64,000 bases of DNA from an uncultured bacterium (GCA_950096895.1 CATNBF010000001.1:20853-84852), one strand, 5' to 3'; shown: positions 39,557 through 59,723, counted from the first letter of the stretch. Numbers and translations: made by a program. Notes: a model not told the origin generated them from the letters alone.

Positions 39557-39955
39557 AAATTCAAACCGACCATCGCGTCGGTTTTAATTTTGCACGGGCA
39601 TCCCGCGATTTGAACGCGCCGCGGTCGACTATGAGTCGGCAAGACAAACGTAGTGCAGTCGCGCCGTCACGAATGCCCCGACGGCACACGTGTGCCCAGG
39701 GAATCGCGCCGGGTGCACCAAAATTCAAACCGACCATCGCGTCGGTTTTAATTTTGCACGGGCATCCCGCGATTTGAACGCGCCGCGTTCGACTATGAGT
39801 CGGCAAGACAAACGTAGTGCAGTCGCGCCGTCACGAATGCCCCGACGGCACACGTGTGCCCAGGGAATCCGCCGGGTGCACCAAAATTCAAACCGACCAT
39901 CGCGTCGGTTTTAATTTTGCACGGGCATTCCGCGATTTGAACGCGCCGCGGTCGA
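39537..39955 (+). repeat. tRNA-Arg-linked tandem element, 2.55 copies of a 164-bp unit
   Basis: Unit starts at 39537, 39701 and 39865. Each begins with the tRNA 3' end gaatcgcgccgggtgcacca (the third copy has a 1-nt deletion), followed by a terminator hairpin and a GC-rich module. Confidence 0.9.
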
Positions 39956-46862: not shown

Positions 46863-48938
46863 ATGACATATAATGAAATCCGCAAGGTATTTTTGGACTA
46901 TTTTGCCGCACATGGCCACACCATTGTACCGTCGGCATCACTGATCCCCAATGATCCAACATTGCTGTTCACGGTGGCCGGCATGGTTCCCTGGAAGGGT
47001 ATTTTACAAGGCACCGAACAACCGTTCGCCCCGCGCGTGGCCGACGTCCAGAAATGCATTCGTGCCGGGGGCAAGCATAATGACCTGGACCAGGTGGGTT
47101 ACGATGGCCGTCATCATACATTCTTTGAAATGTTGGGCAATTGGTCTTTTGGTGATTATTTCAAGCACCAGGCCATCGAAATGTCGTGGGAATTATTAAC
47201 AAAAGTATTCGGTCTGGATCCCAATCGCATTATTGTGACGACGCACACATCTGATGACGAAGCCACCGCCATATGGAAAAAAATTACTGGCAAAGACGCC
47301 ATTCGCCTGGACAAAGATAACTGGTGGTCGGCGGGTGATACCGGACCGTGCGGGCCATGCACAGAAATGCATTATGACTTTGGTCCGGAATTTGCCGGCG
47401 GCCTGCCAGGCAGCGCGGACGAAGACGGCGGCCGTTATGTCGAAATCTGGAATGATGTGTTTATGCAATATGACCGCGATGCCAATGGCAATTTGACCCC
47501 ACTGCCGAAACAAAATGTCGATACAGGCGCGGGTCTGGAACGTGTTGCCGCCATCATGCAGGGTGTACACGATAATTATGACACAGATTTATTCCAACAT
47601 TTAATGACCGCTGTTTCGGACGTTACCGGTGTTTCACGTACAGATGAAAACACACCATCGTTCAAGGTAATCACCGACCACTTGCGTGCCGTTGGATTCG
47701 CCATCGCCGATGGGGTTATTCCATCTAATACAGATCGGGGATATGTTATTCGGCGTATCCTGCGCCGCGCCATGCGCCATGGTCAGATCTTGGGTCATCG
47801 GGGGGCGTTGTTATCACGGCTGTATCCGGCATTAATTACCGAAATGGGTGATGCATACCCGGAATTGGCACGTAATGAAAAACACGTATTGGAAATTATC
47901 GAAAACGAAGAAAATGCCTTTGCCGATATGTTGCAAAACGGGATGAAATTGCTGGATGCCGAATTGCCAAAATTAAACAATAAAATACTGCCGGGGGATG
48001 TGGCGTTTAAGCTGTTTGATACGTATGGATTTCCGCTGGATCTGACGCAAATGATCCTGCGCGATCGTGGGATCGATGTTGATACCGCTGGATTTGATGC
48101 CGCCATGCGTGAACAAAAAGAACGTTCACGTGCCGACACCAAAGGAACGCGGGTTCTGTGGGAATCCCAAACCCAATTAAACGCAACAGATGATGCGGCA
48201 AAATATGCCCCATCGGATATAACAGCCACAGTGGTATCAATCCTGCGTGATGGCGAATTCGTCACGTCTGCCGACGCCAACGATACAGTTGAAATCGCGT
48301 TGGATAAAACGACATTTTATGGCACCCAGGGTGGTCAAACAGGCGATTCGGGCACCCTGTGCCGGGATGGTGCCCCCATCATGACCGTGACCGAGGCCGC
48401 CCGCGCCAACAATATTGTTATACACAAGGGTACCTTGACCGCCCCGATTGCGGTTGGGGACATTGTCACGCCCGTTGTTAATGCAACGGTACGTCAACAA
48501 ACCGCACGCGCCCACACGGCAACCCACCTATTACAGGCGGCATTACGCACGGTCTTGAACGAAGACGTCGAACAACGCGGATCCAAGGTCAGTCCTGATT
48601 CTGTTCGATTTGATTTTTCATTTGGTCGTGCCATGACCCCGGACGAAAAACAGGCGGTCGAAGATCTGGTGAACAAATGGATTGCGGCCGATATGCCGGT
48701 GGCGCACGAAGAAATGTCAATTGATGCCGCCAAAGAACGCGGGGCCATGGCATTGTTCGGCGAAAAATATGGTGATACAGTGCGCGTTATTACGGCGGGC
48801 GATGTGTCATGCGAACTGTGTGGCGGAACCCATATTGATCGCACCGGTGAAATCATTCGCGCCAAAATTAACAAAGAAAAATCTATCAGCAGTGGCATTC
48901 GCCGCATTACCATGTCGGTTGGAACACTGGCTGAATAA
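46863..48938 (+). CDS. alaS: alanine--tRNA ligase (short form, 691 aa)
   Basis: Canonical N-terminal catalytic region and the editing-domain HxxxH/CxxxH motifs (HTATHLL, CGGTH). The ORF ends shortly after the editing domain. Confidence 0.9.
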   Translation: MTYNEIRKVFLDYFAAHGHTIVPSASLIPNDPTLLFTVAGMVPWKGILQGTEQPFAPRVADVQKCIRAGGKHNDLDQVGYDGRHHTFFEMLGNWSFGDYFKHQAIEMSWELLTKVFGLDPNRIIVTTHTSDDEATAIWKKITGKDAIRLDKDNWWSAGDTGPCGPCTEMHYDFGPEFAGGLPGSADEDGGRYVEIWNDVFMQYDRDANGNLTPLPKQNVDTGAGLERVAAIMQGVHDNYDTDLFQHLMTAVSDVTGVSRTDENTPSFKVITDHLRAVGFAIADGVIPSNTDRGYVIRRILRRAMRHGQILGHRGALLSRLYPALITEMGDAYPELARNEKHVLEIIENEENAFADMLQNGMKLLDAELPKLNNKILPGDVAFKLFDTYGFPLDLTQMILRDRGIDVDTAGFDAAMREQKERSRADTKGTRVLWESQTQLNATDDAAKYAPSDITATVVSILRDGEFVTSADANDTVEIALDKTTFYGTQGGQTGDSGTLCRDGAPIMTVTEAARANNIVIHKGTLTAPIAVGDIVTPVVNATVRQQTARAHTATHLLQAALRTVLNEDVEQRGSKVSPDSVRFDFSFGRAMTPDEKQAVEDLVNKWIAADMPVAHEEMSIDAAKERGAMALFGEKYGDTVRVITAGDVSCELCGGTHIDRTGEIIRAKINKEKSISSGIRRITMSVGTLAE

Positions 48939-58570: not shown

Positions 58571-58737
58571 TTCGACATCCTATTTGTTTTCATTAATAGT
58601 TAGCTTAACATCAAATGAAATATATTACAATTTTTATTTTTTATAAATAAAGTATCTAAATAATGTATCATGGCTGAGCATAACATAGAATTTCTGCTTG
58701 CAAATCATAAAATATCCTATATACTAACCTGACGTAT

Positions 58738-58815
58738 GGCGGGCGTAGCTCAGTTGGTTAGAGCACCGGTTTGTGGTACCGGTTGTCGCCGGTTCGAATC
58801 CGGTCGCCCGCCCCA
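58738..58815 (+). tRNA. tRNA-His (anticodon GTG, encoded G-1)
   Basis: g-gcgggcg-ta-gctc-agttggtta-gagc-a-ccggt-TTGTGGT-accgg-ttgtc-gccgg-ttcgaat-ccggt-cgcccgc-c-cca. Confidence 0.9.
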
Positions 58816-59235
58816 TTAAAATTAAAAGCCCGCCTTGTGCGGGGTTTTTATTTTAATTCTGGACGGTGTCGGATGAGAACCGACCGGTTCGACAACGTAG
58901 TTATCGAGAACAAGCCCCTGCGCCGTTCGAGATATACGCAGTGGAAAGGGACCCGCCGCATACGCGGTGGGAATTACAATCCGGTCGCCCGTCCCATAAT
59001 AAAAGACGCCGTATGGCGTGTTTTTTTATGGGATTGCGGCACCGTGAAGAGAACCGGCCGGTTCGACTACGAGTAAGCGAGACAAGCATCGCGCAGTCGA
59101 GTGCTAACGAGTGGTGCGCGCGCAACGCAGCGCGAACAATACGAAGATATCATGCAATGCATGATATCGAAGGTACCCGGTCGCGACAGCTCATAATAAA
59201 AGACGCCGTATGGCGTGTTTTTTTTATGGGATTGC
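58796..59235 (+). repeat. tRNA-His-linked tandem element (two diverged units)
   Basis: The tRNA 3' end aatccggtcgcccgcccca recurs at 58978-58996 with one mismatch and in degenerate form at about 59174-59193. Modules lie at 58861-58977 and 59037-59172. The terminator taataaaagacgccgtatggcgtgttttttt is duplicated. Confidence 0.8.
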
Positions 59236-59249
59236 AGGTATTGACTGCA

Positions 59250-59278
59250 TAAAAAAACACAGGGCAATGCCCTGTGTC
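59250..59278 (-). terminator. fabZ intrinsic terminator
   Basis: Minus strand reads cacagggcattgccctgtgttttttt. Confidence 0.7.
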
Positions 59279-59285
59279 CGTATTC

Positions 59286-59723
59286 TTATTTATCTTGGAC
59301 ATCCATAATGGCGGTAAATGTTGCCTCTGCGACTTTTTTATCGCCCACCATGGCGACCCCATGAAATTTATACAGGCGCATTTTTGACATGACCAATTCG
59401 ACGTGTAATTCCAGCACATCACCCGGCATAACCATATGGGAAAACTTGATCTTTTCCATTGTGGTAAAGTACCCCAGTGCACTGCCGTCTGTGATTCCCA
59501 AATTCATCAATGCGATAAAGCATGCGGTTTGGGCCAAGGCTTCGACCTGTAAGACGCCGGGCATAATGGGTTTTCCCGGAAAGTGACCGGCGCACCAGAA
59601 TTCATCATCACGTACATAATGAATACCAACACCTGATTTATCATCAAATTCACGAATTTCATCAATCAGGCGCATATGGCCGCGATGCGGAATAACTTTT
59701 TCTATTCCTTGTGCGTCTATCAT
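59286..59723 (-). CDS. fabZ: 3-hydroxyacyl-ACP dehydratase FabZ
   Basis: ..IPHRGHMRLIDEI.., ..CAGHFPGKPIMPGVLQVEALAQ.. The start is moved to MIDAQG. Confidence 0.9.
   Translation of the reverse strand: MIDAQGIEKVIPHRGHMRLIDEIREFDDKSGVGIHYVRDDEFWCAGHFPGKPIMPGVLQVEALAQTACFIALMNLGITDGSALGYFTTMEKIKFSHMVMPGDVLELHVELVMSKMRLYKFHGVAMVGDKKVAEATFTAIMDVQDK

Follow-up and report, generated by a model that had tools for sequence, protein, structure and literature searches.

The window, by which we mean the whole 64,000-nt stretch of DNA analysed here, contains a tRNA-His(GTG) gene that is followed on the same strand by a short tandem array of modules, with a hypothetical gene, fabZ and lpxD as the neighbours of the array (Table 1). 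A first-pass annotation of this DNA had listed a series of elements behind the tRNA; we found all of them in place, and they are not a product of chance. Two units are followed by the truncated start of a third, the array thus holding ~2.2 units, and their spacings, previously put at ~181 and 196 bp, measured 181 and 196–197 bp. When the last 19 nt of tRNA-His were searched against the 64-kb window allowing ≤3 mismatches, tail 1 was the only other match (0.02 expected by chance) and tail 2 gave none, which agrees with the earlier description of progressively degraded tRNA-end copies (18/19 matching positions in tail 1, only CCGGTCGC preserved in tail 2). The pattern GAGAAC-N4-30-GTTCGAMNANG likewise matched the window at His units 1 and 2 only (0 expected). 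Terminator 1 scores as a terminator on both strands; the terminator copy at 59198-59224 is identical to terminator 2 save for one extra T in the T run, and it is followed by the first 10 nt of the unit-2 leader, beyond which (after 59235) the sequence is unrelated.

Table 1. Features of the tRNA-His locus and its array (positions counted from the first nucleotide of the window)
Feature	Position	Strand	Sequence or content	Evidence
Promoter-like site of tRNA-His	58698..58725	+	TTGCAA-16-TATACT	
tRNA-His(GTG)	58739..58815	+	CCA encoded; last 19 nt (58797-58815) repeated downstream	
Unit 1	58816-58996	+		
Terminator 1	58824..58854	+	hairpin CCCGCCTTGTGCGGG and T run, flanked by A/T arms	
Unit 1 leader (P1 5' strand)	58861..58874	+	GGACGGTGTCGGAT	MFE folds, leader-vs-tail duplex test
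Unit 1 GA-P2-GA	58875..58892	+	GA GAACC gacc GGTTC GA; GAGAACCGACCGGTTCGA	
Unit 1 core, type A	58893..58977	+	P3, linker, P4	
Unit 1 P3	58901-58934	+	TATC-GA-GAAC...GTTC-GA-GATA, tandem G.A loop; ..TTATCGAGAAC..GTTCGAGATA	
Unit 1 P4	58952-58971	+	hairpin CCCGCCGC-ATAC-GCGGTGGG	
Tail 1	58978..58996	+	AATCCGGTCGCCCGTCCCA; copy of tRNA-His positions 58-76 including CCA	18/19 match
Unit 2	58997-59193	+		
Terminator 2	59001..59027	+	ACGCCGTATGGCGT and T run	
Unit 2 leader	59028..59048	+	ATGGGATTGCGGCACCGTGAA	
Unit 2 GA-P2-GA	59049..59066	+	GA GAACC ggcc GGTTC GA; GAGAACCGGCCGGTTCGA	
Unit 2 core, type B	59067..59173	+	P3, GC-rich hairpin region, then extra segment	
Unit 2 P3	59076-59105	+	AGC-GA-GAC...GTC-GA-GTGCT; ..AGCGAGAC..GTCGAGTGCT	
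Palindrome in unit 2 extra segment	59146-59168	+	perfect, 23 nt; followed by GAAGG	
Tail 2	59174..59193	+	TACCCGGTCGCGACAGCTCA; degenerate tRNA-end copy keeping only CCGGTCGC and the final CA	
Third-unit start, truncated	59198..59235	+	terminator copy (59198-59224), then leader start ATGGGATTGC to 59235	

A comparison of all copies revealed one order of parts in every unit: terminator, leader, GA, P2 hairpin, core and tRNA-end copy. The commonest leader type is a diverged reverse complement of approximately the last 28 nt of the tRNA (in the His case TGG..GGACGG..TCGGAT), and the leader of unit 1 is a diverged reverse complement of the tRNA-His 3' end. P2 has the form GAACC-loop-GGTTC, its 3' arm consisting of the 5' T-stem strand of the tRNA itself and then TTCG(A); in unit 1 this arm, CCGGTTCGA (58884-58892), reproduces the T-stem 5' strand of tRNA-His and the first bases of its T-loop. 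The core, with stem P3 and hairpin P4, spans 85–107 nt and the final part of the unit corresponds to A58 through CCA of the tRNA (the last 19 nt), so that the core sits inside a split copy of the T-arm, between positions 57 and 58. The leader and the P2 5' arm together form an inverted copy of the same tRNA segment in which TC is replaced by GA (GGAT-GA-GAACC). The T-stem copy tracks the host tRNA: modules at tRNA-Val carry its unusual GGGGTTTG (TTTG T-loop), and those at tRNA-Ser(CGA) carry that tRNA's GGGGGTTCA (TTCA T-loop). Separately, at the tRNA-His loci of several relatives (L090, L095, L083 and L086) some module tails are split by inserts of ~25–30 nt, which sit in the acceptor 3' strand and some of which form hairpins (e.g., ..ggtcatc[acacttcaccaaagtttcgtgtgacgggt]ccgcccca).

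Our searches connected both His cores to those behind other tRNA genes. The A core of unit 1 differs from the tRNA-Arg(TCT) core on contig C28 at 1/97 positions and is 83–90% identical to the tRNA-Pro(GGG) and tRNA-Lys(CTT) cores, and the B core of unit 2 is of a type that also occurs behind tRNA-Arg(CCG) and tRNA-Gln(CTG). A profile made from the Arg and Gln units only recovered His unit 2 genome-wide with an E-value of 5.7e-6, and His unit 1 at only 0.18. As MAFFT-only alignments of whole units (A1-A6) produced no consistent structure, we specified by hand, on a cleaner subset, the structure of a covariance model of the P2-P3 domain (R1), trained on 11 sequences of the unit-1 type from several species with the Arg, Gln1 and His2 units left out. 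R1 nonetheless scored His2 at 43.6 bits (6e-8), Gln1 at 34.9 bits and the Arg units at 30.4 and 27.5 bits. The proposal of the first-pass annotation that the His modules are the same element as those at the Arg and Gln loci, to be given up should no supported alignment exist between them, is thereby upheld, for unit 2 by the Arg/Gln profile and for unit 1 through R1, both of which supply supported alignments.

In the genome from which the window derives (G000), R1 had 14 matches, all adjoining tRNA genes and none elsewhere; tRNA-end copies lie behind 9 of its 46 tRNA genes, and two further loci, Arg(ACG) and Pro(TGG), have decayed or inverted cores. At the latter (contig C15:11100-11400, behind tRNA-Pro(TGG)) we observed two cores inverted relative to the tRNA, each abutting a 12-nt copy of the tRNA acceptor 3' end (TCGCCCCGACCA), and the array ends ~200 bp upstream of a cas9-like ORF (MKYKIGLDLGCTSLGWAV...). 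Across the order, 157 of 201 genomes were matched by R1 with 1–13 copies each, every one in the window's own family (9 genera), and the model had no match in the order's five other families. Among the loci that we fetched, modules follow more than 20 tRNA species. In a 30-species comparison of the tRNA-His locus, most species had one unit or two, the core being of type A, type B or a third type ("C"), and several had no unit.

The covariation within this collection argues that the modules fold. The P2/P3 set comprised 53 R1 matches (51 distinct sequences), with standard pairs in 93% of the pair cells and with 74 double-change cells as against 18.5 ± 5.7 in shuffles (0/500 reaching 74) and ≤9 in slid controls, statistics that are inflated by the relatedness of the sequences and by the fitting of the alignment to the model. 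P3 has the general form xxxC-GA-GAAC...GTTC-GA-Gxxx, in which the tandem G.A loop is conserved, the outer arm covaries freely (TATC/GATA, GAC/GTC, GGC/GCC, GGT/ACC) and one inner pair alternates between G-C and A-U. It had been suggested from the correspondence of GAAC/GTTC in the first module with GAC/GTC in other copies that a conserved helix exists here; this helix proved to be the inner arm of P3, which covaries in the 51 distinct sequences and is one pair shorter in B cores. The unit 1 core also holds the purine linker GGAAAGGGA, and within A-type P4 (37 distinct sequences) one pair alternates between A-T and G.T and others swap among CG, TA and GC. The ratio of G.U to A.C was 14:7 in P2/P3 and 18:3 in P4, counts taken from related sequences and, in the case of P2/P3, from the model-fitted alignment, and the sense fold was on average 3.5 kcal/mol more stable than the antisense fold (p = 0.006). 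This excess of G.U, together with the calculated fold energies, favours folding of the tRNA-sense strand, though single-stranded DNA of that same strand would give an equal covariation and G.T signal.

When units were folded independently by MFE, most of them formed a closing stem between leader and tail, as did the E. coli elements discussed below. In unit 1 it consists of GGACGG/CCGTCC plus TCGGAT/ATCCGG, with A58863 facing T58992, the single changed base of tail 1, and in a duplex test the unit 1 leader ranked its own tail first of 25. Overall, leaders paired better with their own than with foreign tails (p = 8e-4), a preference that holds only for the inverted-T-arm leader type; in the same test the Pro and Ser units with other leaders had no own-tail preference. 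The unit 2 leader formed a duplex of -18.3 kcal/mol with the true tRNA tail versus -13.8 kcal/mol with its own. We rejected mimicry of the T-loop motif, by which TTCGA before the core would keep the T54-A58 pair, as the base after GGTTCG varies among A, G and T in the 53-sequence alignment.

Two less likely explanations of the units were also considered. The first, that they are functionless remnants of tandem tRNA-His copies lacking the 5' two-thirds, has in its favour that the T-arm halves, the acceptor 3' strand and the terminator are all copied from the tRNA locus and that decay is plain in unit 2 and in the unit 3 stub. However, the leader copies the tRNA end in inverted rather than direct orientation, neither ARAGORN nor the Rfam tRNA model matched anything in the His units, and the core, which is not derived from a tRNA, is conserved with compensatory changes across the 157 genomes; cores common to different, unrelated tRNA loci (99% identity between His and Arg(TCT)) already contradict such an origin, and we regard it as very improbable. 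The second, which we find scarcely credible, would make the units self-cleaving tandem ribozymes of a hammerhead-like type (GAUGAG-helix-CGA) that yield small, perhaps circular RNAs. Their tandem organisation, the tandem G.A pairs adjoining a helix and a resemblance of GGAUGAG[helix]CGAC to CUGAUGAG[helix II]CGAAAC invite the comparison; however the hammerhead core CUGANGA ... GAAA is not preserved (position U4 holds G, position A14 holds C, and in the Arg units the sequence reads GAUUUG), neither the hammerhead nor any other ribozyme family in Rfam matched at E ≤ 10, and the motif is fully explained as the reverse complement of the T-arm with TC changed to GA. On the basis of the differing core positions and of the Rfam result we rejected the hammerhead and other ribozymes as candidates.

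The layout of the His units is that of the tRNA-linked repeats (TLRs) of E. coli. According to PMC8144298, which cites Egan and Landy 1978 and Rudd 1999, this type of element was first seen behind E. coli tyrT in 1978, and E. coli has 22 copies at 10 loci, among them tyrT/tyrV (rtT RNA, rttR), serX and proK. They are transcribed and processed, with a common 3' end tied to processing, and have no known function (PMC8144298). Like the E. coli TLRs, the His units immediately follow a tRNA gene and share its strand (beginning at 58816, + strand), as one to a few tandem units (~2.2 here, as compared with one to five per TLR locus) of which the last is often truncated. TLR units end in the last 18–20 nt of the tRNA, to which their leader is complementary; tail 1 reproduces the last 18–19 nt of the upstream tRNA at 18/19 positions, and tail 2 is a degenerate version. 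Both also include TGAGAAC-hairpin-GGTTCGA with the tRNA's T-stem, which the His units have at 58875-58892 and 59049-59066; this motif with its tail-complementary leader is our own derivation from tyrT, serX and proK and not a definition taken from the literature. In E. coli tyrT/tyrV the sequence of the repeats is GGGGAAGGAT-GA-GAAGC..AAGGTTC-GA-core-TAATCCTTCCCCCACCACCA, the same plan as in the His units; the pattern TGAGAA-N-GGTTCGA had 9 matches in K-12 (0 in the control), 7 of them in the tyrT/V, serX and proK repeats. Each unit of serX and proK contains a terminator, the last unit of the proK array is truncated, and the Rfam RtT consensus includes the leader-tail closing stem. A tandem G.A-loop stem is present in E. 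coli tyrT as well (CUC-GA-GC..GC-GA-GAG).

In contrast, we detected no homology to the E. coli TLRs outside the tRNA-derived parts. The Rfam RtT model (RF00391; gathering threshold 45 bits) had no match at E ≤ 10 over 58700-59300 or at the Arg locus, and scored its positive control, E. coli tyrT, at 133–137 bits; conversely, R1 had no match at E ≤ 1 on the K-12 chromosome, and in a targeted 1.5-kb search it ranked the four RtT copies as the top four at only 11–14.5 bits, gained mostly from the tRNA-derived hairpin. The cores here are longer than those of E. coli, with other P3 and P4 stems and at least three types (A, B and C), and the host is a 1-Mb alphaproteobacterium with up to 13 copies per genome, turning over between species. 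As the layout agrees and the sequence does not, these units belong to the TLR class by layout and not to RF00391. We conclude that the His locus is very probably a TLR-type array with the anatomy described above, and it is the third locus of this family in the window; the kind of element is already known, and the sequence family, which is specific to this alphaproteobacterial family, and the host group are new. The same plan, in this case with a perfect 19-nt tail, recurs in a module at a tRNA-Ser(CGA) locus of another alphaproteobacterial family (L101), which implies that the plan is scattered across Proteobacteria. L101 also has a duplicate of the promoter region and of the tRNA's first ~17 nt, ~110 bp upstream of the tRNA gene.

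TLRs have been in the literature since 1978 and are part of the E. coli annotation, yet they still lack an explained origin and function, and the E. coli set is limited to 22 copies with little diversity. The His modules are part of a large and fast-changing family in a gut bacterium with a tiny genome, and the hundreds of diverged copies in this gut alphaproteobacterial family are enough to derive structure from covariation, to date gains and losses and to see cassette exchange. The comparison also sharpens the description of the TLR, which combines an inverted and a direct copy of the tRNA 3' end and carries its structured core as an insertion at T-loop position 57/58, and for annotation purposes such regions should not be labelled tRNA pseudogenes or island scars.

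In the main rival explanation the units would instead be miniature integrative elements, or scars of larger ones, that accumulated by serial insertion through a tyrosine recombinase crossing over in the T-loop, each insertion bringing a tRNA 3' end and a terminator and pushing older copies outward, with the hairpins serving as recombination sites, possibly as folded single strands; we judge this unlikely. The repeated tRNA piece runs from the T-loop to CCA, and an identity block of that extent was reportedly described by Williams in 2002 as typical of integrases that target the T-loop. Direct tRNA 3' repeats from the T-loop and tandem accumulation in which distal copies are older and more decayed are shared with tandem tyrosine-integrase islands and cis-mobilisable elements at tRNAs, and the most decayed tails here are indeed the distal ones; each unit has a terminator and a tail, as in such elements, the unit size of 160–200 bp is close to that of attP, and the genome encodes three tyrosine recombinases besides XerC/D. 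Insertions at tRNA genes also occur in G000 and in a relative: the tRNA-Met gene on contig C6 of G000 (47687-47763, minus strand) has a classical ~1-kb insertion downstream with a 45-nt repeat from the anticodon loop to CCA, and the tRNA-His of a relative (L075 in G020) is followed by a 364-nt insert that has a GIY-YIG gene and is flanked by 55-nt direct repeats having the same T-loop start as the module tails.

However, unlike tRNA-integrated islands, the units are only 160–200 bp long and have no integrase; the five tyrosine recombinases that the genome encodes all lie elsewhere, and no module locus has a recombinase gene in it or close by. An attR would require the T-stem 5' copy and TTCG to abut the distal tail, and here they are 85–107 nt apart with the core splitting the T-arm copy; in unit 1 the 85-nt core lies between CCGGTTCGA (58884-58892) and the start of tail 1 (58978). 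The stems covary like those of a folded single strand while their sequence changes freely, a poor fit to protein-binding sites, and one strand is favoured by G.T wobble and folding energy; moreover, E. coli TLRs of the same plan are stable, processed RNAs (PMC8144298). The GIY-YIG gene is absent from the window's genome, and GIY-YIG homing was rejected as this gene occurs in one relative only and is missing from all other fetched loci as well. As to the two insertions themselves, that at tRNA-Met is followed by a further short tail fragment and represents a class of tRNA-linked insertion distinct from the modules, and that at L075, within the first 420 nt downstream of the tRNA, encodes a 79-aa GIY-YIG protein (Pfam E = 3.6e-14).

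By analogy with the E. coli TLRs (PMC8144298) and because of the strand-specific structure, we instead lean, at slightly better than even chances, toward the units acting as RNA and by a mechanism at the RNA level. The promoter scan found one convincing promoter upstream of the array, the tRNA-His site at 58698..58725, and no convincing promoter belonging to the modules within it, and a strong terminator precedes every module; leaky terminators could let transcripts that start at the tRNA-His promoter read through into the modules. A cloverleaf-like fold is predicted for the tRNA-sense strand, its closing stem with a free NCCA would imitate the acceptor/T-stem helix of the upstream tRNA, and tRNA maturation enzymes (RNase P and 3' trimming enzymes) may cut out and stabilise the module. 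[quoted passage not shown] As in these RNAs, the module lies between two terminators and finishes with a copy of the 3' end of the stable RNA upstream, though that RNA is an rRNA in their case and not a tRNA. RrA, RrB and RrF act through Hfq and CsrA binding in vitro (PMC8144298). Neither Hfq nor CsrA (PF17209 and PF02599) was detected in the 93%-complete genome, the controls being positive; the RrA/B/F mechanism thus does not transfer, a CsrA/Hfq sponge is rejected, and binding of these proteins cannot be the general function of TLRs.

It is also conceivable, though decidedly improbable in our view, that TLRs are self-retargeting selfish elements that capture approximately the last 28 nt of a new tRNA in both orientations. 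This would involve a templated step, for which strand switching or snap-back synthesis at the T-arm hairpin are candidates, and the inverted leader and split direct copy would let the element borrow the host's tRNA maturation machinery. If true, this would be target capture of a kind described for no mobile element, and it would explain a common plan in E. coli and distant Alphaproteobacteria without detectable homology of the cores. A retroelement was considered and rejected: the leader complements the tRNA 3' end in the manner of a primer-binding site, but the genome contains no reverse transcriptase.

Comparison with the sister genome G029 indicated how the arrays turn over. The leader at the tRNA-Arg(TCT) locus is orthologous between G000 and G029, but the cores differ, that of G029 being only 78% identical to the His unit 1 core; the cores of His unit 1 and of the first Arg(TCT) unit, nearly identical in G000, have counterparts at the orthologous G029 loci that are only 87% and 78% identical, which points to a recent, cassette-like exchange of cores between loci. 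Leader and core types are combined differently in the two genomes, e.g., the leader type of unit 2 precedes an A core at the tRNA-His locus of the sister species (L003/L068). We propose that loci exchange cores as cassettes whose borders are the T-loop halves, that arrays may grow and shrink by unequal recombination between tail-plus-terminator repeats, and that the unit adjacent to the tRNA would stay intact as distal units (here unit 2 and the unit 3 stub) decay; in most arrays the decayed or truncated units are the distal ones. We think it reasonably probable that the TLR-type array, the RNA-level mechanism and this mode of array evolution hold together as one account of the locus. The regions downstream of tRNA-Lys(TTT) in G000 and G029 are non-syntenic and therefore allowed no empty-site comparison.

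Several smaller observations concern the ends and surroundings of such arrays. In the window at 39884-39955 and at E. coli proK (L117) the last, truncated unit ends right after the GGTTCGA / GGTCGA of P2, at the expected start of the core; the truncation points of other arrays differ. The tRNA-His locus of one relative (L094 in G042) has a different tandem repeat with a period of ~190 bp (gattgccacgccactgacgtggctcgcaatgacaag...), which includes no module core and no tail copy. Finally, G029 has a second, partial tRNA-His (G029:C9:6864-6930; positions 1-67, 97% identical) located ~1 kb from the intact gene.
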